From a virus, in IMG/VR virus record IMGVR_UViG_3300029105_000372: a DNA stretch of 64,000 nt, one strand, 5' to 3'. Position 1 is the stretch's first letter. The number at the start of each line of letters is the position of its first letter. A program made the translations under genes and the position numbers. Below the pieces are notes generated by a model. It was not told the DNA's origin, did not search any database, and saw nothing but the letters and a program-made list of their open reading frames with translations. Positions 13,984-48,901 of this stretch are shown here, piece after piece.

Positions 13984-14026
13984 CAGGCGAGTGCTTTTCG
14001 GGAGCGACCCTAGCCGATGGAGTTAA

Positions 14027-20288: not shown

Positions 20289-20509
20289 AAGAACCGATCA
20301 AGTCTACTTATGACTTAACCGGCTCAAAGGCTCTTTGCTTAATTCTATTTTTATTACTTCCTTACATCCACGGCAGTTTATAAAAATCGTGCCGGATGCT
20401 CCGGGTGCTTTCTTGAAAAGAAGTTTTTCACGGTTTGCCCGCGCCTTACATACAGGGCAGTATACGTTTTCCGTTTCCAATATAGCTGCTCCTTTCTGTA
20501 TGTGGATAG

Positions 20510-20583
20510 TTGCGTGGATGGGATTTGAACCCACGACCGTCTGATTAAAAGTCAGATGCGCTACCGAACTGCGCCACCACACA
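20510..20583 (-). tRNA. tRNA-Lys (anticodon TTT)
   Basis: Manual fold: acceptor TGTGTGG/CCACGCA, D arm GCGC-AGTTCGGTA-GCGC, anticodon arm TCTGA-CTTTTAA-TCAGA, T arm GTGGG-TTCAAAT-CCCAT. Confidence 0.6.
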
Positions 20584-20653
20584 TTACTGGGCGGCTCGCC
20601 ACCGCCCTATCCTACAATAATGGAGGAATCCATGGCCTCTCGAAAGAGGCAAG

Positions 20654-20726
20654 AGCCAAGAGTGGGAATCGAACCCACAACCTTTTGATTACAAATCAAA
20701 TGCTCTGCCAGTTGAGCTATCCGGGC
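20654..20726 (-). tRNA. tRNA-Thr (anticodon TGT)
   Basis: Manual fold: D arm GCTC-AACTGGCA-GAGC, anticodon arm TTTGA-TTTGTAA-TCAAA, T arm GTGGG-TTCGATT-CCCAC. One C.T mismatch in the acceptor stem. Confidence 0.55.
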
Positions 20727-21563: not shown

Positions 21564-21910
21564 TTCTTTTTCATCCCTCTGATAGTATGCTTTTTACGGT
21601 TTCCTACAAATCTGCCGCCGCCCTTTTGGTTGCCATAGATAAATGCCGCCATATTCCCACCAGACAGTTTCTGCGTGACCGGTTTGAAATCTGTCTGTGT
21701 GTTTTCCTCCATAGGGCGTAATGATGGCGTTTCGGGTTTATACTGAGGTCTCCATACCATGGCAATTTTATTGTCTTTGGGATCCACAAATCCAATACCA
21801 TTTTCAAAGATAGTAAGATTAAGTCCATGCCGGATGCAGGCCTCTTCGATCTCTTTCTGTACCTCAACTGCTTTTTTCTGTGCTTCTGTCATACCATTTT
21901 CTCCTTTCAT
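21560..21910 (-). CDS. hypothetical protein with basic C-terminus (116 aa)
   Basis: ORF immediately downstream of the kinase gene. Confidence 0.3.
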   Translation of the reverse strand: MKGENGMTEAQKKAVEVQKEIEEACIRHGLNLTIFENGIGFVDPKDNKIAMVWRPQYKPETPSLRPMEENTQTDFKPVTQKLSGGNMAAFIYGNQKGGGRFVGNRKKHTIRGMKKK

Positions 21911-23637
21911 CGTACAGTTCTCCCAAGTCTATAAATATTTTCATCATTGATGATCGTAAATGCTGTGGAATCTTTGATTAAACAGCTATCTGGCGATACG
22001 GCTTCGCACTCAAAATCCTTAAATGCCTGTTTCTGGTACGAATATATTCTGATATTCCCATCAATCGGTATTGAAATATTGGAGTTATAAAAACATACAT
22101 TGCCAAGCCCACATTGATATTTAATGCGATCCTCGCTATACGCTACTCCATGTTCATTGCACACAAAGGTAAAGAACTGTCCGGCTCCGTTCTCCAACAC
22201 TATAAGCCATCCTCCGGTTATTTTATCTCTGTGTATTCCATAATTATTCACGGTATCGGTATATGGTATCTCAATATTTTTCCCATCCAGACTCACAATG
22301 AGGTTTTCTGCAAATCTACTTACAACGCACGAATGTCCCTCAGATACCGCAAAGTAACTCTCATACCCACATTTTGTAATCGTCCGTATTCCGTTGCCTG
22401 ATTTCGTGATCTGAATTGAGGTTAATGTATTGGCGGGACTTATGAAGTATACTGAATCTCCTGCTGCATAAATCGGGCTCTTGTATTTCTTATCAAACAC
22501 ATATTCTCTATCCGTGGTAAACCAGAACGCTCTATCATCCGCTTTTATTGCAATATTCTCTGTTCCAACCTCTGCAAAATGATATTTAATTCCGCTTTCG
22601 TATGCGAATTTATTCCCATTCTTAACTTCCACTACTTCTCCAGCATTATTGATATAACACTGCTCATTTAGAACAATTTTTACATCGTTTCCTTTGAGCA
22701 TCGTGATAAGTGTAAGTCCTCCTGTTACCCCTTGTGATACCGGCTTAGTAAGAACATTTGCGTTATTATCACATAGCGGACAACGAGCATATTTGCCATA
22801 ATAAAACTCCTGGTGTGCATCGCAGAATTTAAGGTGCTTTGCCATGTGTTTTAATTCATCCCCCATAGATCGGCTCTTATTCTCAAAAATCTTTTTCAGA
22901 GAATCAACCAGATAAGGAGATAAGTTTTTCCACGGTTTAATCGTTCTTGGTATTTTTACTTTTGGATTGTCTATTACGCATATTCCTCGTTTCATACGTT
23001 CTACAATATCCATATCTGGTGTCACAGTCCCGCCATGCGGATGAATCCTTGTAAGGGTTTTCCAAATCAAAATTGCCTCTGCGTATGTGTCTGTTTCCTC
23101 TGAAAAATCATTTCCTTTCATCAATGGATCTTTGAATAAGTCCATGCAAACTTCGCATTTTTCATCTTCCACGCTCCAACTATCACAATCTATAAAGTAC
23201 ACATTTCCAGTTTTGTCAAAGAGGATGTTCTGATCGTTCAGATCCCCAATATACACTCCGGCGGAATGTATATCTCTCACGGTGTCCTGTATCTTTACGA
23301 GTATTTCCAAAATATCTTTCGTGGTTATCCCATTCGCTTTCAGATATTTTTTACTTGTGAGAACTCTTACTTCCTCTCCTACGGCTTTTGGCATAATGTA
23401 ACCAATAAACTTATTGTTATTGTCATACACTGCCGTAATCGGTTTAATAGCCTCCTTTGGCAGCGGTTTGTCAATGAGCATGGCAACTTTCTTTTCCTTG
23501 GCTGCAATATCAACACAGGGTTTGTAAATTTTCAGAATATCGTTGCCAAACTCATAGATATATCCCTCGCCTCCCTCCGTTATGGGGGTAAGCTGTCTTA
23601 TCTTTTCTTTTCCTATCCTCGTTAGTGCCATTTTCAT
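21907..23637 (-). CDS. eukaryotic-like Ser/Thr protein kinase with C-terminal Zn-ribbon / beta-rich extension (576 aa)
   Basis: Gly-loop GGEGYIYEF, lysine in ILKIYKP, catalytic-loop-like IGDLNDQNILFD and DFG-like IDCDSW. C-terminal CPLC..C motifs. Confidence 0.65.
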   Translation of the reverse strand: MKMALTRIGKEKIRQLTPITEGGEGYIYEFGNDILKIYKPCVDIAAKEKKVAMLIDKPLPKEAIKPITAVYDNNNKFIGYIMPKAVGEEVRVLTSKKYLKANGITTKDILEILVKIQDTVRDIHSAGVYIGDLNDQNILFDKTGNVYFIDCDSWSVEDEKCEVCMDLFKDPLMKGNDFSEETDTYAEAILIWKTLTRIHPHGGTVTPDMDIVERMKRGICVIDNPKVKIPRTIKPWKNLSPYLVDSLKKIFENKSRSMGDELKHMAKHLKFCDAHQEFYYGKYARCPLCDNNANVLTKPVSQGVTGGLTLITMLKGNDVKIVLNEQCYINNAGEVVEVKNGNKFAYESGIKYHFAEVGTENIAIKADDRAFWFTTDREYVFDKKYKSPIYAAGDSVYFISPANTLTSIQITKSGNGIRTITKCGYESYFAVSEGHSCVVSRFAENLIVSLDGKNIEIPYTDTVNNYGIHRDKITGGWLIVLENGAGQFFTFVCNEHGVAYSEDRIKYQCGLGNVCFYNSNISIPIDGNIRIYSYQKQAFKDFECEAVSPDSCLIKDSTAFTIINDENIYRLGRTVR

Positions 23638-23646
23638 AATGCCCTC

Positions 23647-24333
23647 CTACAATACGATTGTTGTATCATCCTGGAATACTCTCTGATGTTTGTTTATAAA
23701 CCTCTTTACCCTTACTTCCTTACCGCTCTGCAGGGCTTCCGTAAATTCTTTCTTAAATTGTGCATCTTTCATGGCGAATCGTATTCCGTCAGACGCTACA
23801 CCAATATTCCTGTATTCGTCTTTTGGAAAAGCCTTTGTGGAAAAAATGACACCATCTTTGTACTGTTTGAGCATATCCTTATCCACATAATTATAGGCAA
23901 AGTATTTCGGGTATTCTCCGTCAGATAGTTCTTCAAACTCAATCGTTCCGTCCAGACGTTCTTTCACGATAAAACCATCTCCGCAGTAATCTACCATGAA
24001 ATGTGTCTCATTTTCAGTAACCATAAGGATCGTAAAACAAAGGAAATCTCTGATTGAGCCGGAAGTCTGCCCGAATAGACCAAGTATCTCTCCAAAAGCG
24101 GCTGCGGCAGTATATACACTACATTCATGTATAATTCTGCTGTCATTTTTCAAAAGATGGCAAAACGCTTTTGCTCCAACTTCCGAATGTTTCCCCTCCG
24201 AACAGCCATCGCAAACAACTTTCATCCCATCAAATTCAATTCCGTAGTCCTGGCAATTCGTACCGTAGTCGATATGTTGCTGACCGATTTTATTTATAAC
24301 CATTGTATTTCCTCCCACAAAAAAGAACGGCAA
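23647..24333 (-). CDS. PP2C-like Ser/Thr phosphatase (228 aa)
   Basis: N-terminal NCQDYGIE...VVCDGCSEGKHSEVGAKAF resembles the PP2C metal-binding motifs (xED..DGMGGH). Sits between the vWA and kinase genes. Confidence 0.5.
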   Translation of the reverse strand: MPFFFVGGNTMVINKIGQQHIDYGTNCQDYGIEFDGMKVVCDGCSEGKHSEVGAKAFCHLLKNDSRIIHECSVYTAAAAFGEILGLFGQTSGSIRDFLCFTILMVTENETHFMVDYCGDGFIVKERLDGTIEFEELSDGEYPKYFAYNYVDKDMLKQYKDGVIFSTKAFPKDEYRNIGVASDGIRFAMKDAQFKKEFTEALQSGKEVRVKRFINKHQRVFQDDTTIVL

Positions 24334-24366
24334 CCCCTTTTAGGATCGCCGTTCTACTCTCATTTT

Positions 24367-25041
24367 TTATACGTCAAAAAAATCATCCTGTTTCGATACG
24401 GCACTCTTGGAGTTTTCAATCACTGATTTTGATAAGCAGTTGAAAGCTCTTCTGAGTTCTGATGCAGAACTGCTTACATCGAGGATATTCTTGAATCCAA
24501 GGTCTTTCGCCTCCTGTGTTGCCTGTCCTCCGAAACTGATAAACGCAGTAACGATTTCTTCCACGTTCAGATACTCTACCGCTTTCTTTGCCTTTGCAAA
24601 CCCTCCCGGCTGAGAAGAGTTATCCATCCCATCTCCGAAAATTGCAAACACGGCCTTTACTCTCATTCCCTCATTTTTGAGGAAGTCTCTGTATTCTTTC
24701 AACTTCTCAGTTCCATCAATGATCGTATCGTACATAGCTGTGCATCCATCGGTGCTATACGAAGTGTCAAACTCTGTAATGCGCTTATAGCCTCCTACGG
24801 TTGCACTGTCGGAGAAGTCTGCTCTTGCAACCAGAATCTCATCACATTCCTTGGAATTGATAAGTGCATCTTTGAAATCCGAAAGAGCTTTTACCATATC
24901 TCTTTCATACATTCCCATAGAACCAGACTTGTCGATTCCGACAAAAATTAAATTGATGTTCTCACTGTCGATTTCATCAATGGAGGTATTTGCGATCTCA
25001 ACCTCATCTAATCCGTCAATTACCTGTTCTGTTTCATTCAT
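24367..25041 (-). CDS. vWA-domain protein (TerY-like; 224 aa)
   Basis: MIDAS motif IFVGIDKSGSMG with downstream Thr and Asp positions; a Rossmann-like alternating pattern. Confidence 0.7.
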   Translation of the reverse strand: MNETEQVIDGLDEVEIANTSIDEIDSENINLIFVGIDKSGSMGMYERDMVKALSDFKDALINSKECDEILVARADFSDSATVGGYKRITEFDTSYSTDGCTAMYDTIIDGTEKLKEYRDFLKNEGMRVKAVFAIFGDGMDNSSQPGGFAKAKKAVEYLNVEEIVTAFISFGGQATQEAKDLGFKNILDVSSSASELRRAFNCLSKSVIENSKSAVSKQDDFFDV

Positions 25042-25053
25042 ACCGGCTACCTC

Positions 25054-25962
25054 CTACAAAATATCATCTGTGCTTTTCACGATGTTTACATGGTACGTTT
25101 TCTTAAAATCATCAAAGGTCTGCTCAGTAACATCCTCAAACCCAGGAATGGAGGACATACAATCTTCCAGGATATAGATTTTCTGAGTGATCTCTGGGCG
25201 ATTAGCGTAATGTTCGAGAATCTGTTTAATGCTTTCCAATACGCAATGGCTCTTTGCCTCTCCTGCAATAATGATCTTGTCGTAATTTTCCAGTTTGTTC
25301 AGGAAGTCGATATTGATGTAGTTCTTTGTATCATACTCAGGTTTGATAATTCCGTACATTTCGCTGAGTGGATCCTGTCCTTTTACAAGACGCTGCGTAA
25401 CGGCTTTCTTTGCAACAGAGTGAAAATAAATCATGTTGGCAAACTGATTTTCAAATGCCGCACCAGATGTACCCTGTAAACAGTGGTAAGACCATACGCA
25501 TAAGGTTTTCTTTCCGTCTTTTTCCAGATGTTCTACATAGTCACGGCTCTGGCGAGGGTAGATAACAGCTCTGTACTTTCCAGAATCAAGGTCTGCCAGC
25601 GTAATCGGTGTGTAAGGAGCCGGATTGTTGCCATTTTCATCAATCCACCAGCACGGATGGAAAATCTGATGTGGTGTGTGGGTATCAATAGATACCGCAA
25701 TGTTTGTAATTTTATCCATATTGTTATAGATAAACTGTGTCATTCTCTCCACATCGCCGTGTGCTCCGGGAACTCCGAGTGCTCCATTATCCATGAAGTC
25801 CTGCTGCACATCAATTCCGAGAAACAATACTCTCTCTTTGTTTTGTGCTGCCGGTGTAAGCTGCTCATCGTTTGCCTTTCTCAAAATCTCATTTAGAGAA
25901 ATCGGATTTGTCTGTGAACCAATACTTGCGATGTTCACAATTTCATTGTAGGGTGTTTTCAT
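25054..25962 (-). CDS. isochorismatase-family cysteine hydrolase (nicotinamidase-like; 302 aa)
   Basis: LFLGIDVQQDF near the N-terminus and IIAGEAKSHCVLES catalytic-Cys region, both typical of the isochorismatase/PncA fold. Confidence 0.55.
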   Translation of the reverse strand: MKTPYNEIVNIASIGSQTNPISLNEILRKANDEQLTPAAQNKERVLFLGIDVQQDFMDNGALGVPGAHGDVERMTQFIYNNMDKITNIAVSIDTHTPHQIFHPCWWIDENGNNPAPYTPITLADLDSGKYRAVIYPRQSRDYVEHLEKDGKKTLCVWSYHCLQGTSGAAFENQFANMIYFHSVAKKAVTQRLVKGQDPLSEMYGIIKPEYDTKNYINIDFLNKLENYDKIIIAGEAKSHCVLESIKQILEHYANRPEITQKIYILEDCMSSIPGFEDVTEQTFDDFKKTYHVNIVKSTDDIL

Positions 25963-26024: not shown

Positions 26025-27476
26025 CTATTCGACTGTGATGCAATCATATCTCTCAGAATTGATTGTATTCTCCATAGCCTCAACCGGATTGTAGCCAAGG
26101 TTCTGCAGGATCTGTTTGAATACCGTCACGGACTGTCCGCTTGCAAGCTGCACACCCTTACGGTTGTGATCTGCATGGAATACATCGTGTCTGCTATTCA
26201 CATTCCAAAAGATGATGTTCGGGATTACATAACCGGCCTTGCAGAACTTATTTGCCATCTTGTCATAGAACGACCACTCACGGTTTCCGCAATAGTCAAT
26301 TTCCATATCAGAGATAACAACGATTGCTTTCGGCATTTCCTCCTGCGGAGTATTATGCTTTTTCGCAATTTCAAGAACCCTCTCAAAAGCAGCTTTAAGG
26401 TCTGTGTTGCCATCCCAATTTGCTCTGCTCACGTTGCAAATCTTCTGTTCAAGGGTTTCTCCCCTCAGAATAACCGTCTCCGGTCTGTCAGAGAACGTCA
26501 TAAACAGATTGTGGTATGCACCCACATTTCTCTCTGCAAAATAGATTGCAAGACCGATTGATGTTGCCATAGGTCTGCCTCTCATAGAACCGGACACATC
26601 CGCCATAACTAAAGCGTTTGTTCCTTTCTCCACATAATCTGGCAATGCTTTCCACTGTGCTTCGAGTACCTTACTGCTCTCTCTGCCATAAAGGATCTTC
26701 TCAACAATATCGTAAGGGAACAGTGTTGAAGCATTGATTTTTACCTCTCCCTTTTCTGCCTTGTTGATAAACTCTCCAAACCTCTCAGCATCATGTTTCA
26801 TAAATGCCTTGCGGTAAATCATCATCGCACGGCTCGGAACTTCCGGGTATTTGATTTCATCCCATCTTCCGGCTGACATAAGACTTTCAACGACACCGAT
26901 CTGTTTTCTCATGCTACGGACGATTCTCTTGAAATTGTAGACCGGATAGCCTAATTTCTGCGCCGTAAGGATTCCGAGTTTTCTTGTGGCAGAGCTGCTT
27001 GCATCTGCGGTCTTAATCCATTTTGCAAGTAAAGAAATTGCATTTCCGGCATTGAGGTTCTGTAAATCTTCCTCAAACTGTTTCTTCATTGCCGCCCACA
27101 TATCGTCCTCCAATGGAGTTCCGATAAGCTCATACAGATCATCATATCTTCCGAATACACCAACCAGATCAAGGTTTGGTCTGAGTGCTTCTGGGTGTTT
27201 CTCTGCCATATAACGAATAATGGTTCTGAAAGTCTTTCTCTCTCCAAGACCGCCACGAATGTCTCTTGCATAGAACGCAATCTTTGTAGCAAAGAGTTTA
27301 TCCTGTGCGTATGCCTCAGCAAACAGAGTGGTAATTCTGTTCTCATCAGCCTCTCTCAGCGATCCGATTGTACCAAACAGATCCAGTCGGGCATCGCCAG
27401 AGGTATTCAGTGCCACTGCACCGTTTTCAGTCCGGGTAAATCTACCCTCTTCTCTCATTGCATCTGCAAAACTCAT
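26025..27476 (-). CDS. large vWA-domain protein (483 aa; phage DUF2828-like, possibly Ro60-related vWA)
   Basis: MIDAS motif LVMADVSGSMRGRP followed by a long alpha/beta region. This architecture is common in phage genomes. Family assignment is from memory only. Confidence 0.5.
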   Translation of the reverse strand: MSFADAMREEGRFTRTENGAVALNTSGDARLDLFGTIGSLREADENRITTLFAEAYAQDKLFATKIAFYARDIRGGLGERKTFRTIIRYMAEKHPEALRPNLDLVGVFGRYDDLYELIGTPLEDDMWAAMKKQFEEDLQNLNAGNAISLLAKWIKTADASSSATRKLGILTAQKLGYPVYNFKRIVRSMRKQIGVVESLMSAGRWDEIKYPEVPSRAMMIYRKAFMKHDAERFGEFINKAEKGEVKINASTLFPYDIVEKILYGRESSKVLEAQWKALPDYVEKGTNALVMADVSGSMRGRPMATSIGLAIYFAERNVGAYHNLFMTFSDRPETVILRGETLEQKICNVSRANWDGNTDLKAAFERVLEIAKKHNTPQEEMPKAIVVISDMEIDYCGNREWSFYDKMANKFCKAGYVIPNIIFWNVNSRHDVFHADHNRKGVQLASGQSVTVFKQILQNLGYNPVEAMENTINSERYDCITVE

Positions 27477-27678
27477 GTTTTCCTACCTTTCCAGGACTCT
27501 CATTTACGGAATTGAACCGTTTCACATTGTTTTTTAGACATTTGCTTTAACCATTGTGATTGCTGTAGGAGTCCCTATAAAATTGTTTACCGTTTCATTG
27601 TCAGGACACTATTGGGGTTTATGATTAACAGTCATATCCAAAAGGGTTGCTGTAAGTGTCCCATGTAAAGTTTTATGC

Positions 27679-27969
27679 CTATCTGGCTAACTTTTTAAGT
27701 TCATACCGCCTGTTATGTATCGCTCCGACAGAACGACCAATCTTCTCAGACAGTTCAGAATCGGTAATCTCATGTTTGATTACCAGTGCATCTTCCTCCG
27801 TAGTCCACGGATGAGACGGATATAGAAATGACGTTTTGCTGTAATATCGCCTATGCTGCCTCTGACACGCTTTATGATACTTTTCCATATCCCTATAATC
27901 TTCTTTTCGGTTCATAGGCAACCTCTTTCTTTTTACATGACGCTGTTTCAAACGGGAAAATATTGTCAA
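27679..27969 (-). CDS. small basic HTH-like protein (96 aa)
   Basis: WTTEEDALV...IGRSVGAIHNRRYEL resembles a sigma-r4/Myb-like HTH. Confidence 0.3.
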   Translation of the reverse strand: MTIFSRLKQRHVKRKRLPMNRKEDYRDMEKYHKACQRQHRRYYSKTSFLYPSHPWTTEEDALVIKHEITDSELSEKIGRSVGAIHNRRYELKKLAR

Positions 27970-28012
27970 TGGAATTTTCTGTTTTGAAAGATTGCTGTAA
28001 GCGTCACTTAAT

Positions 28013-28108
28013 TGCCCCGACAGGACTTGAACCCGTATGCTCGATTGCTGTAAGGAACACTCCTGTCAACCATGTTCCATCCGGTTTACCATAACCGGCA
28101 ATCGGGGC
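28013..28108 (-). ncRNA. tRNA-like gene, atypical: canonical acceptor and T arm but 13-nt anticodon loop and 17-nt variable region
   Basis: Acceptor GCCCCGA/TCGGGGC, D arm CCGG-TTATGGTAAA-CCGG, 6-bp stem GGAACA/TGTTCC enclosing TGGTTGACAGGAG, T arm ACGGG-TTCAAGT-CCTGT. No 7-nt anticodon loop could be formed. Confidence 0.5.
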
Positions 28109-28110
28109 AG

Positions 28111-28237
28111 AGACGATGAGAGGAATCGAACCTCTATCCGCAGCTTGGGATTGTTATTGAAAGGAGTTTGCTGATTATGCCACTAACATGACATTCTTCT
28201 TAACAGAGCTGCTGTGCTCCCTTTGCACCACATCGCC
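28111..28237 (-). ncRNA. tRNA-like gene with ~56-nt insertion in the anticodon loop (127 nt)
   Basis: Acceptor GGCGATG/CATCGTC (one G.U pair), D arm GTGC-AAAGGGA-GCAC, anticodon stem GCAGC...GCTGC enclosing 63 nt, variable GGAT, T arm AGAGG-TTCGATT-CCTCT. Confidence 0.55.
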
Positions 28238-28242
28238 ATATA

Positions 28243-28360
28243 GAGTGAGGGACGGACTCGAACCGCCGACAACGTCCTTAGCATGGAATGAAAGATTGCT
28301 GTTCAGATCACAAACATGATCCATTTTTCTTTCGTGCTCTACCAACTGAGCTACCTCACT
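28243..28360 (-). ncRNA. tRNA-like gene with ~45-nt insertion between D and T arms (118 nt)
   Basis: Acceptor AGTGAGG/CCTCACT (7/7), U8-A9, D arm GCTC-AGTTGGTA-GAGC, then ~70 nt containing the stem GAAAGA/TCTTTC around a 34-nt loop, then T arm GGCGG-TTCGAGT-CCGTC. Confidence 0.55.
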
Positions 28361-28425
28361 CATGTAATTGGCGCATCTTCTTGATTTGTAAGGACATTTG
28401 CGCCATCGCCTTGATTGGAGAGGGT

Positions 28426-28532
28426 AGGATTTGAACCTACACTACATTTGCCTCTTTGGGTGTATTTGCAACATTATTAAAATGATACGTTTTCACAATA
28501 CAAATTGCGTCTGCCAGTTCCGCTACCTCTCC
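28426..28532 (-). ncRNA. tRNA-like gene (Leu-type D arm) with expanded anticodon region (107 nt)
   Basis: Acceptor GGAGAGG/CCTCTCC (7/7), D arm GCG-GAACTGGCAGA-CGC, anticodon stem ATTTG...CAAAT enclosing 32-50 nt, T arm GTAGG-TTCAAAT-CCTAC. Confidence 0.55.
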
Positions 28533-28565
28533 ATATTCAGTTTTCAATACGGAAATCCGTATGAG

Positions 28566-28684
28566 TTGCGTGGGAGGGAATCGAACCCTCATCTCTTCAT
28601 TTCCAGTGAAAAAAGAATAGTTGCTGTCCGTGCCACATGGAACATGACACCGCTTTAATGTTCTATCCATTGAACTACCACGCA
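28566..28684 (-). ncRNA. tRNA-like gene with ~43-nt insertion between D and T arms (119 nt)
   Basis: Acceptor TGCGTGG/CCACGCA (7/7), U8-A9, D arm GTTC-AATGGATA-GAAC, 65 nt with no canonical anticodon arm, T arm GAGGG-TTCGATT-CCCTC. Confidence 0.55.
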
Positions 28685-28687
28685 ATA

Positions 28688-28759
28688 TTGCGGAGATTGG
28701 ATTTGAACCAACGACCTCCGGGGCATGAACCCGGCAAGCTACCACTGCTCCACTCCGCC
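28688..28759 (-). tRNA. tRNA-Met (anticodon CAT), initiator-like 1:72 mismatch
   Basis: GGCGGAG-TG-GAGC-AGTGGTA-GCTT-G-CCGGG-TTCATGC-CCCGG-AGGTC-GTTGG-TTCAAAT-CCAAT-CTCCGCA-A. Anticodon loop has CAT at positions 34-36. G1xA72 mismatch. Confidence 0.6.
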
Positions 28760-29002
28760 ATAATGCAACCTCGCCCCTAGGTTGCTTTGTAAGTTCTGCT
28801 ATGTCGTTCCTTGCGTTCCTCACTTAACCGGTGCTAACTACGACAGTATGTGACCGGCGGACTTGATTAAACATTTCCGTACACCCGCTTAATGCCCCAC
28901 TATTGGCGGTTCTGCCGAGACCAATGGCAATGTCGATAGGAAATGTCTTTCGGGGAATCTCTCTAACCCAACTGGTTTATCGTCCGAAGTCAGGACGGCT
29001 TT

Positions 29003-29365
29003 TTATAACACTCTGGATATTGTCTTTCCAGAATTATTCAGAATGAATACCATAGTATCAGGAATACCAATGCGGCTATACACATAAGTAACTGTATCTA
29101 AAGTAACCACCGTGAGTGAAACATTCTTCTCTAATGGAGGATCGCCAAGATACCAAATAATGTTATCTCTGCACAATCCGGCAGCACCGATAAGTTCCTT
29201 TGCCTTGTTGAAATTCTTCTGTCTGATTTCCAATTCTTCATCTGAGGATTCAGCGTTGGATATTTGAAGCATATCCTTTTCGATAATAACATCGAAGCAC
29301 TGAATAACCTGGGATTCCTCAAAGGTATCATTTCTGACACCCTTTTTGATTGTTTGTAATATCAT
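29003..29365 (-). CDS. hypothetical protein (120 aa) embedded in the tRNA array
   Basis: Intact ORF with no recognised motif. Confidence 0.35.
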   Translation of the reverse strand: MILQTIKKGVRNDTFEESQVIQCFDVIIEKDMLQISNAESSDEELEIRQKNFNKAKELIGAAGLCRDNIIWYLGDPPLEKNVSLTVVTLDTVTYVYSRIGIPDTMVFILNNSGKTISRVL

Positions 29366-29682
29366 ACCTTTCTTCCTCTCTGTCTACGCCTTTCGGCTTA
29401 TTGCCCCGTTCCGGACCGGGATTGGATAGGTAAGGAATCGGACCTTACACTGGAATATTACGATAGTCGCAGATTACCTCATGTGTTTGGTGCATACGGA
29501 TTTTTGAACCTATCGTATCAAAGGTGGGTGGCTGCCATTCCTGCTTATTCCAATCACTGCACTTTGCGTTGTTGCCACACCGGGACGCACCTTTTCCTCA
29601 ACCGTACTAATATTGCAGTTACCCTTTACTGCCTACTATCCAATTCTGAAACCTCCTCCACCGGTGGAATACGGTTTCATAA

Positions 29683-29765
29683 CGGTGCATACAGGAATCG
29701 AACCTGTACTGCATTTCTGCAGGACGACTTAGCAAGACGCTCCGCTACCATTACGGCAATGCACC
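29683..29765 (-). tRNA. tRNA-Ser (anticodon GCT), type II
   Basis: Acceptor GGTGCAT/ATGCACC, 3-bp D stem, anticodon arm GCGTC-TTGCTAA-GTCGT, variable arm CTGCA-GAAA-TGCAG hairpin, T arm ACAGG-TTCGATT-CCTGT. Confidence 0.6.
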
Positions 29766-29768
29766 ATA

Positions 29769-29852
29769 CGCCGTGTTAGGGATTTGAACCCCAGAGACTT
29801 TTACATCCAGACAGTTTTCAAGACTGCACCCTCGACCAACCGGACACACGGC
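29769..29852 (-). tRNA. tRNA-Ser (anticodon TGA), type II (approximate fold)
   Basis: Acceptor GCCGTGT/ACACGGC, anticodon arm GCAGT-CTTGAAA-ACTGT, long variable arm, T arm TGGGG-TTCAAAT-CCCTA. D arm parse uncertain. Confidence 0.5.
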
Positions 29853-29967
29853 AGAGTAGTTTTCCCTTGGTAACGTACAAGTCGGAGTTCCTCTACCCGC
29901 CGGTCGTAAACGCCCTTTCGTAACCTTTTTGTGGAGTGCTTTGAAAGAGTAAGTCAAGTGTCTCCAA

Positions 29968-30039
29968 CTGGCAAGGTGGGGATCGAACCCACGACATTCT
30001 GATTAACAGTCAGACGCTCTACCACTGAGCTACAAGCCA
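29968..30039 (-). tRNA. tRNA-Asn (anticodon GTT); two U.U mismatches in the acceptor stem
   Basis: D arm GCTC-AGTGGTA-GAGC, anticodon arm TCTGA-CTGTTAA-TCAGA, T arm GTGGG-TTCGATC-CCCAC. Acceptor TGGCTTG/CTTGCCA is imperfect, so this may be a pseudogene. Confidence 0.5.
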
Positions 30040-30042
30040 TTA

Positions 30043-30117
30043 TTGGAGTAACAGGACTCGAACCTGCGCTAACCAACATCCGTAGTGTTGTGCTCTATCC
30101 ATCTGAGCTATACTCCA
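30043..30117 (-). tRNA. tRNA-Arg (anticodon ACG)
   Basis: Acceptor TGGAGTA/TACTCCA, D arm GCTC-AGATGGATA-GAGC, anticodon arm CAACA-CTACGGA-TGTTG, T arm GCAGG-TTCGAGT-CCTGT. Confidence 0.6.
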
Positions 30118-30526
30118 ATGCAGTCCGGCGGCAGCTTGGATGGTTGCCACTACCGAACCGATGCAACGTGTAAGACAGTTGCCAACAAAGGTATTTCATT
30201 TTTTAATGTGGTTCTCGGACCTTGCACCCCTCCACATGGTTCTCATAATCCACCGACTACATACTCAAAGAACCTTTGACGAGTCCAACTCTTTATCGCC
30301 TTACCTCGGATGTACGTTGTTATCGCAGTTCTCCGCCTCTACTACATTCCTCTGCGTTTTGATAGATTTTTTTGTGTAGTTACGGCTCTATCTGCCTTTC
30401 TACTCATGGTTTTCATCTTGAAAATACTCATGCCAAAAGTCACTTAGTGATCACCGGAACCTCGCCACCGCCAATTTTCTTTCCTGTTAAAGCCGGACTA
30501 AGAAAATCAGTTAAGAAATCCGCTCG

Positions 30527-30599
30527 TCCTACGGTGGGGAGTCGAACCCCACTTTCCCCGGCATGGTGTCCGTGGCATTTCCAGTTATGCTATCGTAGG
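30527..30599 (-). ncRNA. tRNA-like gene of canonical length (73 nt) with unpairable anticodon stem (pseudo-tRNA?)
   Basis: Acceptor CCTACGA/CCGTAGG, D arm GCAT-AACTGGAA-ATGC, T arm TGGGG-TTCGACT-CCCCA. The 17-nt anticodon region ACGGACACCATGCCGGG does not form a 5-bp stem. Confidence 0.4.
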
Positions 30600-30803
30600 C
30601 ATCGTTGCAACAATGGTCTTTAGCGTGACTTACGCAAGCTCTCCAAGTTTAAGTCCTGTCGGCTTTCCCGGACTACTCACATAAGCCTCTCAGTGAGCAT
30701 TGCAATCTCCCTATTTAATGATTGCTTACCACGGCTTTCGCCAATACTTTTCAGCCGGAACACTAAACCAACTATAAACAGTCAGCGTTATTCTCAGTTG
30801 AAA

Positions 30804-30875
30804 TGTTCGATGGGAGAATCGAACTCCCGTCCCCACCGTGAAAAGGTGGTATCTTGACCGCTTGACTAATCGAAC
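30804..30875 (-). tRNA. tRNA-Glu (anticodon TTC)
   Basis: Acceptor GTTCGAT/ATCGAAC, anticodon arm CCACC-TTTTCAC-GGTGG, T arm GGGAG-TTCGATT-CTCCC. Confidence 0.6.
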
Positions 30876-31013
30876 AGGTGTGGTTTTTACTTTTTGACTG
30901 GAAGCAAGGTACCCTTTAACCACAAAAAATCGTAACCAGGTTCTTGCAATTCTCCGCAGAGAAGCCGTTCGCGTCCGGTAAATTCTCTGTGAATAGGCTG
31001 CAATCTACCTAAA

Positions 31014-31103
31014 TGGGCGAAAGAGGAATTGAACCTCCAATGTTTACCACGAGGGAACGGATTTACAGTCCGCCGCAACACCACCAATCGTTGCCGTTCG
31101 CCC
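31014..31103 (-). tRNA. tRNA-Tyr (anticodon GTA), long variable arm (90 nt)
   Basis: Acceptor GGGCGAA/TTCGCCC, anticodon arm GCGGA-CTGTAAA-TCCGT, 18-nt variable arm, T arm GGAGG-TTCAATT-CCTCT. Confidence 0.55.
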
Positions 31104-31168
31104 GGAATTTTCTTTGTATCGCCAAGAACATTAGGAAAGAAGCGGTGGGAATCTTGATCGCTAGAGCT

Positions 31169-31202
31169 GCACCCACAGGTGGAATCGAACCACCACACTA
31201 CA
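31169..31202 (-). other. tRNA 3' fragment (T arm plus 3' acceptor strand only)
   Basis: GGTGG-TTCGATT-CCACC followed by TGTGGGT. No matching 5' acceptor strand or D arm lies upstream. Abuts the HU gene stop. Confidence 0.35.
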
Positions 31203-31221
31203 CCAAGTTCGCTCCGATCAT

Positions 31222-31533
31222 TTAGCGATTCACTTCATCTTTCAGTACTTTACCGGCTTTGAACTTAGGTGCTTTGCAAGCCGGAATGGAAATCTCTTTT
31301 CCGTTCTGAGGGTTCTTACCAACTCTGGCAGCACGCTCAGTCACTTCAAATGTTCCAAAACCGACCAACTGCACTTTTCCGCCTTTTCCAAGTTCTCCGC
31401 CTACAATCTCAACAAATGCGTTGAGTGCTTTTTCAGCATCACTTTTGGAAAGTCCGGCATCGTCAGCCATTGCCTGTACTAATTCAGCTTTATTCATTGC
31501 TCTGTACCTCCGTTGTTGGTGAAAGATCTCCAA
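31222..31533 (-). CDS. hup: HU-family DNA-binding protein (103 aa)
   Basis: MNKAELVQAMA...GFGTFEVTERAARVGKNPQNGKEISIPA, a near-consensus HU/IHF signature. Confidence 0.85.
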   Translation of the reverse strand: MEIFHQQRRYRAMNKAELVQAMADDAGLSKSDAEKALNAFVEIVGGELGKGGKVQLVGFGTFEVTERAARVGKNPQNGKEISIPACKAPKFKAGKVLKDEVNR

Positions 31534-32467
31534 TGTCTACGATTGTGTCTGTGCCATCAGACAGTGACACTTTCGGCAGTGCGCCGTCCCACTTCTCCAA
31601 ATACATCTGCTGCAAGATCTTATTCGTCAGTGAATCATTCAACAGTTTGTTGGCATCTGCCTCTCCCTGCGCTTTAATAACGGCAGCGTCAGCTTCGCCC
31701 TGCGCCTGAGTGGTTTTTACCTTAGCATCCGCCTCGGCAGCTTCGATCTTTTTCTGATTTTCAATCTGCTGCTGTTCATAAGCCAACTGTGCGGTCTGTT
31801 TTTCAGCGATTGCCTGATTGTAACTGTCCTCAAAATCAGTATTGGCAATTACTACCTTGTTGATGATTACTACGTCCTCTCCATATTTCTCATCGAGGGC
31901 TTTCTGAATGTTCTGCATGGAAAGAGGCTCTACAATTCCTCTGTTCGTTGCATCTGTTGAGGTCAAGGACTTACTGCTTGTCTTGATTGCGGAAGCCACA
32001 AGTGTCTGCGTTACAAGGTTTTCCTTATAGTTGCTGACGTTGGCATAAATCCATGCGGACATTTCCGGGTTGATCTGGTATGTAACTGTGATGTCATCAT
32101 AATACAGTGCTGTTCTCTCTGATGTTTCAGACCAAATCTGTCCGTCAAACACAATGTCCTGCTGCTTGTTGTTGACTTTCTCAATCTTCTGGACGAATGG
32201 GATCTTCCAATTTGCGCCGTTCTGTATTGTTGTCTCATCAATCTGTCCGAATGTGCTTTTAACTCCGGTATATCCGGTCGGTATAATCACGAGTGAATTA
32301 CCTACTCCGAATACAATCAGACCAACAAGCATCACAACAACAAAACCTTTTGGGAATTTTGCTTTCTCATTTCCCTTTTCCTCGATTTCATACTGTTTTA
32401 ACGAACATCCTGCAATGATGCCGCCGAGGAAAAGTATGATTCCGATGATCGTCAAAATGATACTCAT
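31490..32467 (-). CDS. SPFH / band-7 (stomatin-prohibitin-like) membrane protein (325 aa)
   Basis: N-terminal TM helix, then a band-7 core (IPTGYTGVKSTFGQI...NWKIPFVQKIEKVNNKQQDIVF) and a C-terminal coiled coil (AEKQTAQLAYEQQQIENQKKIEAAEADAK). Confidence 0.7.
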   Translation of the reverse strand: MSIILTIIGIILFLGGIIAGCSLKQYEIEEKGNEKAKFPKGFVVVMLVGLIVFGVGNSLVIIPTGYTGVKSTFGQIDETTIQNGANWKIPFVQKIEKVNNKQQDIVFDGQIWSETSERTALYYDDITVTYQINPEMSAWIYANVSNYKENLVTQTLVASAIKTSSKSLTSTDATNRGIVEPLSMQNIQKALDEKYGEDVVIINKVVIANTDFEDSYNQAIAEKQTAQLAYEQQQIENQKKIEAAEADAKVKTTQAQGEADAAVIKAQGEADANKLLNDSLTNKILQQMYLEKWDGALPKVSLSDGTDTIVDIGDLSPTTEVQSNE

Positions 32468-32629
32468 TCCGTTCTCCTTTTCCGTTTGTATTGCTACCTC
32501 TGGTAGCCGTCACGGTCATGCGCTGGACATTCCGTTTCTGTTCTGCATCGGCGCACTCAACCACCTTACTTCGTCTGGTCTATCTTGGTGTAGCTTCCAT
32601 TTACCCGGGAAATGCCAGATCGCCATGCG

Positions 32630-32703
32630 TGGACCATCAGGGACTTGAACCCCGGACCATCCGGTTATGAGCCGGACGCTCTAACCAACTGAGCTAATGG
32701 TCC
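32630..32703 (-). tRNA. tRNA-Met or tRNA-Ile2 (anticodon CAT)
   Basis: Acceptor GGACCAT/ATGGTCC, D arm GCTC-AGTTGGTTA-GAGC, anticodon arm TCCGG-CTCATAA-CCGGA, T arm CGGGG-TTCAAGT-CCCTG. Confidence 0.6.
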
Positions 32704-32803
32704 ATACCTCACACTTGGGGAGATTTCATGTGAGGTCTCGGAGGATCATTATAAGTGGGAACCCTCCGATGTAGGATTTCTGTCGGGGAACAGTAATCCT
32801 AAG

Positions 32804-32876
32804 TGGGAAGTGTTGGTGTCGAACCAACTCCTATGGATTTTCAGTCCATCGCTTCTACCGAGTTAGCTTACTTCCC
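32804..32876 (-). tRNA. tRNA-Phe (anticodon GAA)
   Basis: Acceptor GGGAAGT/ACTTCCC, anticodon arm ATGGA-CTGAAAA-TCCAT, T arm GTTGG-TTCGACA-CCAAC. D arm parse approximate. Confidence 0.55.
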
Positions 32877-33029
32877 ATATTACGGCACTGTTACTGTGCC
32901 GTAATGGTTAGGAGAAACTTTAATGCCAAATACCTTGTGTTCACTCCGCTTAACTTATGTCCGTGTCACTTGGTATGGTCGTAGTATAGCGCACTAAACA
33001 TTCTTTGTCAAGTGGAATAAACAATATTT

Positions 33030-33284
33030 TCAAAAAAATTTGTTTTTCTGTGTGCAGTCGGCTTTACAACCGTTTTTCTGAACATCAGAAATCAACTTGC
33101 TTACAGGGATTTTGAGAAAATTTGCTATATCGTATATCTTGTCGATTGACGGATAACTTTTGCATTGTTCCCAATCGCTCACGGTATTCTGTGCCACATG
33201 AACGCCCGTTGCAAGTTCGTGTTGTGTAATTCCCCTATTCGTTCTTTCTTTTTTCAAGTTGGTGGCGAAACTATATTGTCCCAT
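33030..33284 (-). CDS. XRE-family HTH transcriptional regulator (84 aa)
   Basis: RTNRGITQHELATGVHVAQNTVSDWEQCKSYPSIDKIYDIANFLKIPVSKL is a classic Cro/CI-type HTH. Confidence 0.6.
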   Translation of the reverse strand: MGQYSFATNLKKERTNRGITQHELATGVHVAQNTVSDWEQCKSYPSIDKIYDIANFLKIPVSKLISDVQKNGCKADCTQKNKFF

Positions 33285-33295
33285 GCTATCCCTTT

Positions 33296-34948
33296 CTATA
33301 TTCCTAAGTCACTTCTCTTTACTACCTGTCCCTCTCCTCCAAGAAGAGCATCTACAAACTGGGCGAACATTGCCAGAGTGTCCGGCGCATCATCATGTTT
33401 ATTTTTTCCGAGCTGTGTATAACTGCAAAGGAATGACATCATCACACCGTAATCACTCTTAGGCTCATATTCTGTAATATCCTTGAATATGACGTGTTCC
33501 TTAACCCATGAAGAATTGACGATGATCTTGGTCTCTTTGTTCTGAGTAGTGTATTTCTTCGTGATATGGCATCTGCCGCCTTTTGCTTTGACAAGTCTCT
33601 CAACTTCATTTGCGGTTCTGCTACCCTCTTTGTTGCTCTCGAACTGTGCCTGCTGTACATGATGCTTAACAAGCATATCTGAGTTGAGTTCGTCCAAGGT
33701 CCCAGGGTCGATGTTCTTGAATACCAGATCTTCCAGATAGTATCTGTCTCCGTACTGGTAGAAAACTCCGAGGAAGTTGTAGTCTGTACCGGTGTCCTTG
33801 GTATCGCAGATTGCCAATATAGAATCCGGTTCTCTGTCCGGCAGTCCTCCGATATATCTCTGTAATTCTGTTGGATGATACAGAATACCCTCTCTCTCAA
33901 TCGGATCGCTCTTATACAGGCAGCGATATGAAACATCATCCATCGACATTTCCATATCGTGGAAGTATTTCTCATCAAATCCAACATCGTAATCGTAATC
34001 AAAGTTGCTTTTTCCGGTCTGAGGATCAATGTCTGGAACAGCAATGAACTCTGCCCTCGGATTGCCCTCATACATTCTTTCAAGCCGGCCAATAACATCA
34101 TGCACGCTCCATCGGGTTGCAATGTGGATCTCTTTTGCTTTCTTCTTTTTACGAGATTTAAGGTCTGTGGTGTACTCTCCGTACAACTTATCCAGACGAT
34201 CAATAGACAGAGCCTCTTCGATACCGGAAACCAAATCATCCACATACAGAAATCCCTCACAACGGGTAACACCGGTAAGGGAACCTCTGATTGGTCTGCA
34301 GGTCAGTGTCTTAAACGGTTGCCATCTTCCAAGGTTTATTGTCTCTTCTTTTGCATTGTTTCCCTCAAATACAATGTCCGGGAACACATCGCTCCAACAA
34401 TATTCATTACTGGTAATTATGTTGAGAACGGCATCATAGAACATTCTCGTCATAAATCCAGAATGTGAGGACATAAGGTTTGGTGTGTTTGGGTAATGCC
34501 CCATTACAAACGATATAAAAAACTCTCCCAGTGTGGTCTTGCCGGTGCCAGGAGGCATTGATATTGATAGAATATCCAACTCATCATCAATAAGCCTCTG
34601 CATCTTCTGTACAAGCCAATAAATCTTATTTCTTCGTGGCTGATAGTATCTGTCCTCGGGATCTCTGTTCTTTTCCACATAAAGCAGATAAGAGTCAAAA
34701 TCCTTATGTTCCTGTGCCAAGAACAAAAGAGCCTTATTGTACAAATCGTAATATTTAATATCTCCTGTTGCACATAGTCTCAGTGCAAGGAATCTGACCT
34801 TATTCGCTAATTTCCGTGAAAGTTCTTTATCTTCCCGGATAACCTCATTTGCCATTCCGAGTAAGGACAGAAGATTGTCATAGTCACTCAGATCGCTTTT
34901 CAGAAGCCTTACGATAATCTCTTTATTCGATAGTTCGTGTTGAGCCAT
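33296..34948 (-). CDS. terL: terminase large subunit (550 aa)
   Basis: Walker-A-like SMPPGTGKTT, acidic catalytic segments, and the C-terminal nuclease-domain motif GKNKHDDAPDTLAMF. Confidence 0.8.
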   Translation of the reverse strand: MAQHELSNKEIIVRLLKSDLSDYDNLLSLLGMANEVIREDKELSRKLANKVRFLALRLCATGDIKYYDLYNKALLFLAQEHKDFDSYLLYVEKNRDPEDRYYQPRRNKIYWLVQKMQRLIDDELDILSISMPPGTGKTTLGEFFISFVMGHYPNTPNLMSSHSGFMTRMFYDAVLNIITSNEYCWSDVFPDIVFEGNNAKEETINLGRWQPFKTLTCRPIRGSLTGVTRCEGFLYVDDLVSGIEEALSIDRLDKLYGEYTTDLKSRKKKKAKEIHIATRWSVHDVIGRLERMYEGNPRAEFIAVPDIDPQTGKSNFDYDYDVGFDEKYFHDMEMSMDDVSYRCLYKSDPIEREGILYHPTELQRYIGGLPDREPDSILAICDTKDTGTDYNFLGVFYQYGDRYYLEDLVFKNIDPGTLDELNSDMLVKHHVQQAQFESNKEGSRTANEVERLVKAKGGRCHITKKYTTQNKETKIIVNSSWVKEHVIFKDITEYEPKSDYGVMMSFLCSYTQLGKNKHDDAPDTLAMFAQFVDALLGGEGQVVKRSDLGI

Positions 34949-45776: not shown

Positions 45777-46208
45777 ATGGAACAACAGAAAAGAGAGGGA
45801 AAGACCATGACAGCAGAAAAAATTATTGATTCTTTGAGATTCACAGCAACAGAGGCAGACGAACAAAAGGACCTTTTTACACCGTCCCACGTTCTCTATA
45901 AATGCCGCGTTATCAACCCGGCAAATAATCGCCGCTACACTTTTGATTATCAATGCAACCCAAGCGCAACGCATGAGCCAACAAAAGAAGATTGTTTATA
46001 TTGTCTCTTGTCTGATGCTTCTTGTGCTGATAGCTGCACAGATGAGGCGGACTTTTTAACAGAGTTTGGATATATTGACGGCGGAGCGGATCAGGTTCGC
46101 AAAGGCTTAAAGGCTTATAAGGCTTGCAAGCGTACCGCGGCAGCTATTGACCGTATTTTTACAGAGGACGAAAAAACCGCCCTTAATAAATATTACGAAA
46201 ATTACTAA
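45777..46208 (+). CDS. Cys-rich hypothetical protein (143 aa)
   Basis: First gene after the long leader. CxxC-type motifs (CLYCLLSDASCADSC). Confidence 0.4.
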   Translation: MEQQKREGKTMTAEKIIDSLRFTATEADEQKDLFTPSHVLYKCRVINPANNRRYTFDYQCNPSATHEPTKEDCLYCLLSDASCADSCTDEADFLTEFGYIDGGADQVRKGLKAYKACKRTAAAIDRIFTEDEKTALNKYYENY

Positions 46209-46273
46209 TTGACAGAAACGAGGCGCGCGCCCTCCGGGGCGCTCCCTCTCAAAATATAGGAGGCTTATATATT

Positions 46274-46543: not shown

Positions 46544-46546
46544 ACC

Positions 46547-47518: not shown

Positions 47519-47583
47519 GACGGGCGGCGGCGGATCATCCGCTCCGGCTCCGCTGGATATATTGAGAGATCGGAGGCTTTAGG

Positions 47584-47880: not shown

Positions 47881-47895
47881 GGAGGCCTTTATATT

Positions 47896-48471: not shown

Positions 48472-48499
48472 CATATTGAGTTTAGGAGGATAAGAAACC

Positions 48500-48865: not shown

Positions 48866-48901
48866 TCCGTTACATTGTAACGATATGTAACACGTTGTAA
48901 T

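Follow-up and report, generated by a model that had tools for sequence, protein, structure and literature searches.

On the minus strand of a 64,000-nucleotide (nt) stretch of viral DNA (IMG/VR record IMGVR_UViG_3300029105_000372; the whole stretch is referred to here as the window), a tRNA array ends in eight non-decoding RNAs that share one structural module, and these are followed immediately by a gene for a 483-residue protein with a predicted Ro60/TROVE fold (26025–27476). We conclude that this locus carries a system of the Ro/Y-RNA type whose RNA partner is of a new kind, and that the Ro60-fold protein together with its cognate tRNA-mimic RNAs is the best-supported RNA-handling component of the locus. 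Ro60/Y-RNA particles are known in animals, bacteria and a few phages, and their function in bacteria and phages is poorly understood. The RNA family described here is conserved and structured, and we hold it to be real with high confidence. The reading that we favor as likely is that the phage makes a Ro60/Y-RNA-type particle with tRNA-mimic RNAs, probably for tRNA repair or decoying. A preliminary description of the window, which dealt with the tRNA array and a scattered set of putative tRNA-repair enzymes, did not remark on the long tRNA-like genes without an anticodon loop, on their common module or on the Ro60-fold gene downstream of them. The phage is an abundant human-gut phage, 96% identical to the faecal contig MT837596; its close relatives are binned with Bacteroidales or Prevotella, and more distant ones with Lachnospiraceae.

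The eight non-decoding RNAs (A–H, all on the minus strand) occupy ∼1.2 kb at the downstream end of the array (27493–28684). Their common module consists of a 6–9 bp helix (P1), a linker of 1–3 nt and a single-stranded ACAGCAA(Y), with an A-rich stretch preceding the partner strand of P1. RNAs A–E are tRNA-shaped, with conserved and covarying acceptor, D and T arms, and carry the module (a hairpin, then ACAGCAA) in place of the anticodon arm. The hairpin in this class takes the form nnnUCAUG-loop-UGUGAnnn and is followed by two or three nt and then by ACAGCAA(Y). None of these RNAs presents an anticodon on a stem with a 7-nt loop. RNAs A–D, of 117–127 nt, match the Rfam tRNA model above its gathering score (42–47 bits), with inserts of 50–62 nt in the anticodon arm.

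The individual members of the tRNA-shaped class differ in detail. RNA A (28566–28684; 46.6 bits with the Rfam tRNA model and 90.5 bits with R1, the covariance model of the tRNA-scaffold class) pairs GUGUCA with UGGCAC, followed by GG-ACAGCAAC. RNA C (28243–28360; 41.8 and 107.6 bits, respectively) contains the hairpin GAUCA-UGUUUG-UGAUC, followed by UGA-ACAGCAAUC. RNA D (28111–28237; 45.7 and 79.2 bits) has the longest insert (62 nt) and the module variant UCAGCAA, and retains a CUGUUAA stretch after an anticodon-like stem. The module of RNA B (28416–28532; 43.7 and 53.5 bits) is degenerate in this genome and intact in the relative L044; RNA B was left out of the training set of R1. RNA E (28013–28109; 22.7 bits with R1) is a compact scaffold of acceptor, D and T arms, in which GGAACA paired with UGUUCC, plus UU-ACAGCAAUC, replaces the anticodon arm.

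In RNAs F–H, the same module is formed differently, as the helix pairs a 5′ strand with a distant 3′ strand and thereby closes the entire RNA. RNA F (27937–28007) is closed by the stem GUGACGCU/AGCGUCAU, followed by U-ACAGCAAUC. RNA G (27602–27663) is closed by UGGGACACU/AGUGUCCUG, followed by U-ACAGCAACC, and encloses an inner hairpin (AUGA-CUGUUAA-UCAU) in which 11 nt (GACUGUUAAUC) reproduce part of the anticodon stem-loop of the phage's own tRNA-Asn. RNA H (27493–27575) is closed by GGGACUC/GAGUCCU, followed by CU-ACAGCAAUC, and contains a T-arm-like hairpin; its homologs in relatives have compensating stems. The 3′ strand of RNA H stops 17 nt short of the Ro-like start codon, and the RNA, thus, lies within the 5′ untranslated region (UTR). 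Like Y RNAs, RNAs F–H and their homologs combine a covarying 5′/3′ closing stem with a location beside a Ro60-type gene. A possible helix-turn-helix (HTH) or Myb-like protein of 78 residues (27679–27915, minus strand) is encoded between RNAs F and G; it is present in 84 fetched loci and has only a weak match to HTH_24 (E 0.19).

The RNAs are packed 1–5 nt apart behind an initiator-like tRNA-Met, suggesting one precursor that is processed like a tRNA array. The extended motif ACAGCAAYC occurs seven times in the window compared to 1.19 expected, and five of the seven occurrences fall within ∼0.75 kb (27558–28302); helices adjoin seven module copies in the window. No Rfam 15 family matches the module (cmscan, E ≤ 1; 27500–33500 and the loci L083 and L365–L367). 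These searches returned only tRNA matches, sub-threshold YrlA matches and chance matches, and we therefore rejected the module as a known ribozyme or Rfam family. Two further structural elements were also considered. Pseudoknot pairing of ACAGCAA with the hairpin loop or with an anticodon-like loop looked inconsistent by eye; the loops vary and ACAGCAA is constant. The other candidate was a second helix, of A-rich and U-rich strands, around the module of the tRNA-scaffold RNAs. It would have made the module a "bulged helix" like the Ro60 site, and was rejected, as it gave 2.18 contiguous pairs compared to 2.15 for permuted controls.

The protein encoded immediately downstream of the RNAs is assigned to DUF2828 and DUF7788/vWA of Pfam, and also matches PHROG 850, annotated as "RNA-binding protein". 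An AlphaFold model based on 41 diverse homologs has a pLDDT of 92 and a pTM of 0.91. In a Foldseek comparison with the PDB, the 11 best matches of this model are all Ro60/TROVE proteins, including Xenopus Ro60, D. radiodurans Rsr and the Ro60 of Thermus phage phiLo. The predicted architecture is that of Ro60, a ring of α-helical (HEAT-like) repeats followed by a vWA domain. The MIDAS motif (metal-ion-dependent adhesion site; DxSxS...T...D) of the vWA domain is intact, and its residues (Asp293, Ser295, Ser297, Thr358 and Asp390) are invariant in the 41 homologs. The Ro60 fold of the protein is extremely likely. The link is structural only; a link between DUF2828 and Ro60 at the sequence level was rejected, as phmmer and a 41-sequence profile searched against the PDB match only a vWA protein. 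Homologs are already annotated as "Ro-like RNA binding protein" in mycobacteriophages and as "RNA-binding protein" in several other cultured phages, and its likeness to Ro is, therefore, no new observation. DUF2828 comprises 6584 cluster representatives at 50% identity and occurs in 709 cultured-phage records.

The module accompanies the DUF2828 gene across phages. In close relatives (protein 85–100% identical), it is found 3–10 times within 1.6 kb upstream of the gene, with compensating changes in its helices. In distant viral contigs (protein 36–42% identical), copies such as AAGGCGC-UC-ACAGCAAAA...GCGCCUU are located among the upstream tRNAs or just downstream of the gene. Among 53 diverse loci, taken from bacterial assemblies and viral contigs, the density of ACAGCAA on the gene strand is 2.19 per kb over the 800 nt that precede the gene, compared to 0.108 per kb elsewhere (a 20-fold difference), and a helix adjoins 88% of these upstream sites, compared to 22% elsewhere. 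When 94 diverse loci were searched with the tRNA-scaffold covariance model, 80 members were identified, each of them on the strand of the gene. The association also holds in the reverse direction. When IMG/VR was searched with the RNA pattern alone, a DUF2828 gene was found downstream on the same strand, at a distance of 154–992 nt, for 95 of the 98 sites with enough downstream sequence; the three sites without the gene are still tRNA-scaffold RNAs.

The structures are supported by covariation. In the 80-member alignment of the tRNA-scaffold class, 97.7% of cells pair (slid controls, ∼40%) and 19 of the 23 pairs show double (compensatory) changes; RNAalifold applied to 20 hand-picked members identified compensatory changes in 17 of 23 pairs. 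For stem-closed RNAs with the anticodon-loop mimic, the type of RNA G (alignment A4), P1 is 93.8% paired with compensatory changes in six of eight pairs, and the anticodon-like hairpin is 96.7% paired with such changes in four of five pairs, although the covariation result is weaker here because this alignment was chosen for pairing. Additionally, permuted tRNA-like domains (T-arm, closed acceptor, D-arm) are present in the loci L083, L081, L365 and L367.

Eight lineages of cultured phages were sampled, and the module lies beside the gene in seven of them: E. coli typing phage 1 (Felix O1-like), Listeria P100, mycobacteriophage DirkDirk, Bacillus phage Nate, Campylobacter F372, Enterococcus PEF1 and Staphylococcus S-CoN_Ph10. 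The E. coli phage has four copies between tRNAs, one of them with a permuted tRNA-like domain. In S-CoN_Ph10, three RNAs with the helix and ACAGCAA are located just downstream of the Ro-like gene (L371, 4513–4766), under two tiny "hypothetical protein" coding sequences that are probably misannotated non-coding RNAs. The eighth lineage, Vibrio nt-1, contains only a weak candidate for the module.

Two other structured RNAs were noticed near DUF2828 genes. In Listeria P100, a match to ROOL RNA (L366, 1459–2010; 86 bits compared to a gathering score of 99.1, E 2.7e-16) lies among tRNAs ∼1 kb upstream of the DUF2828 gene (gp165). A match to drum RNA (RF02958; 83.3 bits) lies ∼1 kb upstream of the DUF2828 gene on a contig of a Clostridia metagenome-assembled genome (L157, 1896–2005).

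A scheme that combines these elements can be proposed. The region would be a polycistronic RNA array on the minus strand, the upstream part of which holds about 11 ordinary decoder tRNAs and the downstream part the eight non-decoding RNAs. As RNAs A–E keep a normal tRNA scaffold, RNase P and RNase Z could release them from the array like tRNAs. The Ro60-fold protein would then bind the P1 helix and ACAGCAA, forming particles of the Ro/Y-RNA type; such direct binding is probable. The tRNA-like parts may act as adaptors or decoys through which tRNA-handling enzymes or broken tRNAs reach the ring. Candidates for the recruited enzymes are RtcB and the host RNase P, CCA-adding enzyme and polynucleotide phosphorylase (PNPase). 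Alternatively, the tRNA-like parts could soak up host anticodon nucleases. RNA H, placed in the 5′ UTR of the Ro-like gene, may allow the protein to repress translation of its own mRNA. A role of the system in counter-defence or repair is put forward tentatively, as a possibility somewhat short of an even chance.

Several points weigh against a particle of this kind. The connection between the protein and the RNAs rests on co-location, and most of the loci were fetched via the protein, a bias that the reciprocal search counters for one lineage. The alignments used for covariation were either fitted to the model or selected for pairing. By sequence, the protein has no match to the TROVE family of Pfam (PF05731) or to a Ro60 chain in the PDB. 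The conserved ACAGCAA is not the CGAA/bulged-helix site found in canonical Y RNAs, and the second helix around the module in the tRNA-scaffold class is unsupported. The YrlA model (RF02553) does not reach its gathering threshold of 69 bits: it scores 22.1 and 31.1 bits in the window, where it matches tRNA parts, gives no match in L083, and scores 39.8 bits on the DirkDirk RNA, where it aligns with the T-arm, the closed acceptor and the D-arm only, and not with the stem carrying GCAGCAA. Finally, the RtcB gene of this phage is 25 kb from the Ro-like gene and on the opposite strand.

The same observations could be read in other ways. The array and RtcB might be an ordinary translation and repair kit, in which the long genes are intron-containing tRNAs, with an endonuclease to remove the introns and RtcB to join the exons. 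RtcB is the tRNA-splicing ligase of archaea and animals and is intact here, RNAs A–D exceed the Rfam tRNA gathering score with their inserts in the anticodon arm, and ARAGORN, run with its intron option, calls the long genes tRNAs. However, the "introns" it proposes are placed at inconsistent positions (32, 34, 37 and 38) and leave unrelated anticodons (Gly, Cys, Stop and Asp), and the alignments of 20 and 80 homologs contain no conserved anticodon stem-loop, only the A-rich linker, the hairpin and ACAGCAA. Furthermore, the module is also present in RNAs that lack a tRNA scaffold, namely F–H and the majority of copies in Felix O1-like phages, P100 and others, and no splicing endonuclease was identified. 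We therefore rejected intron-containing tRNAs, which we consider very improbable. Alternatively, the helix with ACAGCAA might be not a site of protein binding but a signal for processing or regulation (for example, an RNase cleavage site, a transcription attenuator or a phage promoter) that accompanies tRNA arrays, which often neighbor DUF2828 genes. Such a signal would account for module copies between tRNA genes in several phages, for the single-stranded state of the conserved 7-mer, which could be a nuclease site, and for the copy in the 5′ UTR of the Ro-like gene (RNA H). The element follows the DUF2828 gene rather than tRNAs in general, however: it is present without nearby tRNAs in L087/L089 and DirkDirk, and is absent from the rest of the array in the window (28760–32880). 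The compensatory changes in P1 and the location of the module within conserved tRNA scaffolds are more in keeping with a stable, structured RNA than with a promoter in the DNA, and the recovery of the gene at nearly all sites of the reciprocal search also speaks against a general array signal, which we regard as unlikely.

The RNAs could also be purely cis-acting leaders or functionless, decayed tRNA pseudogenes. RNA H is indeed a 5′ leader, the module of RNA B has degenerated in this genome, and the array holds an aberrant tRNA and T-arm relics (see below). Against this, module and scaffold are kept with compensatory changes across relatives whose proteins are only 36–87% identical, the module is conserved across phages of Proteobacteria, Firmicutes and Actinobacteria, and genomes carry multiple copies, some of them downstream of the gene. 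The chance that the RNAs are no more than leaders or relics is, thus, slight. A Ro60/Y-RNA-type particle with tRNA-mimic RNAs is the reading retained here.

The decoding part of the array is conventional. ARAGORN identified 12 tRNA genes in the window, all on the minus strand, with two at 20509–20726 and ten within 28687–32876. The first two, tRNA-Lys(UUU) (20509–20583) and tRNA-Thr(UGU) (20653–20726), lie outside the main array. Within it are an initiator-like tRNA-Met(CAU) (28687–28760), tRNA-Ser(GCU) (29682–29766), tRNA-Ser(UGA) (29768–29853), tRNA-Asn(GUU) (29968–30039), tRNA-Arg(ACG) (30042–30118), tRNA-Glu(UUC) (30803–30876), tRNA-Tyr(GUA) (31014–31103), a second tRNA-Met(CAU) (32629–32703) and tRNA-Phe(GAA) (32803–32876). 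All of these were found by both ARAGORN and Rfam, except tRNA-Ser(UGA) and tRNA-Tyr(GUA), which were called by ARAGORN only and whose best Rfam match is a sub-threshold tRNA-Sec. We took a tRNA as canonical if it scored above the RF00005 gathering score or was called by ARAGORN with a 7-nt anticodon loop. Such a loop is present in 11 of the called genes, nine of which score 53–72 bits on RF00005. The initiator features of the first tRNA-Met are a mismatch at pair 1–72 and an anticodon stem with three G–C pairs at its base; the second tRNA-Met could be an elongator tRNA-Met or a tRNA-Ile2. The remaining ARAGORN gene (30526–30599, minus strand; "acca", possibly Gly or Trp) is aberrant, as it has an 8-nt anticodon loop and no Rfam match at any reported threshold. 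It scores 22.5 bits with the tRNA-scaffold model R1, and could be a degenerate tRNA or a frameshift-type suppressor.

These results agree closely with the preliminary description. The isotypes it had read by eye are all correct, as are the two additional tRNAs it had placed at 20510–20726 (Lys-ttt and Thr-tgt), and its estimate of the number of tRNA and tRNA-like genes ("at least 16") is essentially right, since 15 such genes lie within 27990–32880, in addition to T-arm relics (31181–31191 and 29434–29444). It had also stated that no tRNA has an encoded CCA, and a direct reading of the 3′ flanks confirmed that none follows the discriminator base in any of them. The T-loop pattern occurs 22 times in the window compared to 7.7 expected.

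The array also contains protein-coding genes and non-coding spacers. An HU-like DNA-binding protein (31222–31533; Pfam, 1.2e-32) and an SPFH/Band-7 protein (31490–32467; Pfam, 2e-15) are encoded inside it on the minus strand. The SPFH gene and an open reading frame (ORF) of 120 residues (29003–29365) are present in only 14–19 of ∼50 close relatives, and the array appears to be a hotspot for gene insertion. A band-7 gene also adjoins the Ro-like gene in mycobacteriophage DirkDirk. The spacers of the array amount to ∼1.9 kb of the minus strand (28761–29002, 29366–29681, 30119–30525, 30600–30802, 30877–31013, 31104–31221, 32468–32628 and 32704–32802) and may hold more non-coding RNAs; they are kept in close relatives, which are too similar to inform.

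The RtcB RNA ligase of the phage is encoded on the plus strand (52080–53363; PF01139, 1.7e-62; phrog_1075, 9e-134) and scores 212.5 bits on PF01139 compared to a cutoff of 27. Its catalytic motifs (mpDvHaG, diGCG, GNHF, HtGSR and pHGAGR) align with those of P. horikoshii RtcB (PDB 4dwr), and the Asp, Cys and His residues that bind metal and the nucleophilic His (in HGAGR) are present. The ligase noted in the preliminary description is, thus, present and does not have the appearance of a degenerate, non-catalytic paralog. The gene is part of a plus-strand block (∼46000–54100) with reversed GC skew that also encodes an FtsK/SpoIIIE-like ATPase and an integrase-family protein, and RtcB may have arrived within an inserted module. 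Elsewhere, RtcB is the immediate neighbor of the DUF2828 gene in 11 diverse loci, all distant relatives, and is located 1.3 kb downstream of it in P100, and this proximity makes an RNA-repair theme plausible.

The other proposed members of a tRNA-repair and counter-defence package fared less well than the array and the intact RtcB, as a role of the phosphatase in RNA end-healing and one of the nucleotidyltransferase (NTase) in CCA addition are only putative. The former (57953–58516, minus strand) is a HAD phosphatase with a DFDGT motif, as described. Its suggested relation to the Pnkp phosphatase domain is not demonstrable: the best assignment is the BT0820 family (PDB 2obb, 2.8e-15; NF046079, 3.7e-25), the match to a polynucleotide kinase (PNK) PHROG is weak (5e-5), and a kinase domain is absent. 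A homolog of the HAD protein lies beside a Ro60-like gene in two loci, L081 and L113. The Pol-beta-type NTase-like protein (61199–61924, minus strand; 241 residues) had been likened to CCA-adding enzymes. Class II CCA-adding enzymes consist of a PolyA_pol head followed by neck, body and tail, and have about 350–450 residues. The phage protein has no significant match in Pfam, NCBIfam or the PDB, none to PF01743, and matches NTP_transf_5 only at E 0.096. Its AlphaFold model is poor (pLDDT 55), and the fold matches of this model are weak (E ≥ 8.8e-3 over ∼100–140 residues) and mixed among PAP I poly(A) polymerase, terminal uridylyltransferases and CCA-adding enzymes. No CD-NTase or antibiotic NTase is among the top 50 of these matches, so that the grouping that would have spoken against a tRNA enzyme does not appear, and the identity as a CCA-adding enzyme is not established either. 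A MazF/PemK-like endoribonuclease gene (61933–62469, minus strand; PF02452, 4.4e-23) is located directly upstream of the NTase-like gene, and the two are one fused protein in some database homologs (P0271 and P0274). The two may, therefore, be a toxin-partner pair and not involve a tRNA-maturation enzyme.

Downstream of the Ro-like gene on the minus strand (21907–25962) are two unknown ORFs, a PP2C phosphatase (23647–24333) and a Ser/Thr-kinase-like protein (21907–23637), the latter assigned on a weak TCAD9 match. Among the fetched loci, the trio of kinase, PP2C and vWA protein is confined to the closer relatives of this phage; such trios are a recurring theme of conflict systems (PMC7159879). 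Elsewhere in the window, a match to int-alpA RNA (RF02996) was observed at 13953–14020 on the minus strand (43.8 bits compared to a gathering score of 35.8).

By themselves, a tRNA array, RtcB and the idea of counter-defence are ordinary. The significance of the locus is that a much larger phage protein family than the known Ro60 proteins has a predicted Ro60 fold, together with its own conserved RNA partners, which are undetected by any Rfam model. As these RNAs are built from tRNA parts, they point to tRNA metabolism (repair, quality control or the decoying of anticodon nucleases) as the target. In phage annotations, they also account for some of the "tRNAs with introns", unusual gaps between genes and very small "hypothetical" ORFs. 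The literature searched on phage Ro-like proteins with RNAs comprises only work on the TROVE family and genome announcements, DUF2828 is mentioned only in unrelated papers, and no earlier description of a DUF2828/ACAGCAA branch was found in it. It is conceivable, if doubtful, that DUF2828 and the ACAGCAA-module RNAs are a second, very widespread and phage-specific branch of Ro/Y-RNA systems, in which particles with modular RNAs would work alongside RtcB, as decoys of tRNA or as platforms for repair, to counter host anticodon nucleases and other defenses that damage RNA. In such a branch, a docking module would be fused to a whole tRNA body, to a permuted body or to an anticodon stem-loop. Since the system is present in Felix O1-like phages, Listeria P100 and phages of Staphylococcus and Enterococcus, as well as in mycobacteriophages, its function is directly testable in model hosts.

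Comparisons with known systems place the locus nearest to Ro60 and its Y RNAs. Phage tRNA arrays with repair enzymes, as in T4 (Pnkp and Rnl1, which act against PrrC) and jumbo phages (tRNAs with RtcB or Rnl), also combine clustered tRNAs with an RNA ligase in a lytic-type genome, and counter-defense is a plausible rationale for such sets (PMC7824862). In contrast to the T4 paradigm, neither Pnkp nor Rnl is found here, the ligase is RtcB, which needs no end-healing, and the repair theme is centered on a proposed Ro-like particle that has non-coding RNAs of its own. Intron-containing tRNA genes share with RNAs A–D a tRNA scaffold with an insertion of 50–62 nt in the anticodon arm, and differ in that no anticodon loop can be restored here and the inserted sequence is a conserved module, found outside tRNA scaffolds as well.

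Ro60 proteins of bacteria and phages bind neighboring Y RNAs that carry tRNA-like domains, and these proteins can recruit PNPase (PMC4201824, PMC12135203); the rsr-yrlA-rtcBA operon responds to damaged tRNAs (PMC7790460). The present system resembles Ro60 and YrlA, as exemplified by Salmonella rsr-yrlBA-rtcBA and phiRo60-Yrl1/2 of phiLo, in its predicted helical-repeat ring with a vWA/MIDAS domain and in the small RNAs adjacent to the gene (PMC4201824, PMC7790460, PMC12135203, PMC7824862). The design of a protein-docking stem joined to a tRNA mimic beside a Ro60-type gene is also shared (PMC4201824, PMC12135203), and the linkage of the DUF2828 gene to RtcB parallels the bacterial rsr-yrlA-rtcBA operon (PMC7790460). 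However, the protein belongs to DUF2828 and not to TROVE, without a Ro60 match at the sequence level, and the conserved RNA element is a helix with ACAGCAA instead of the CGAA/bulged helix. The RNAs depart from YrlA as well. The module is used in a circularly permuted way, so that many of them keep the unpermuted topology of tRNA, with free acceptor ends and the module at the anticodon position, and one class displays only a mimic of an anticodon stem-loop.

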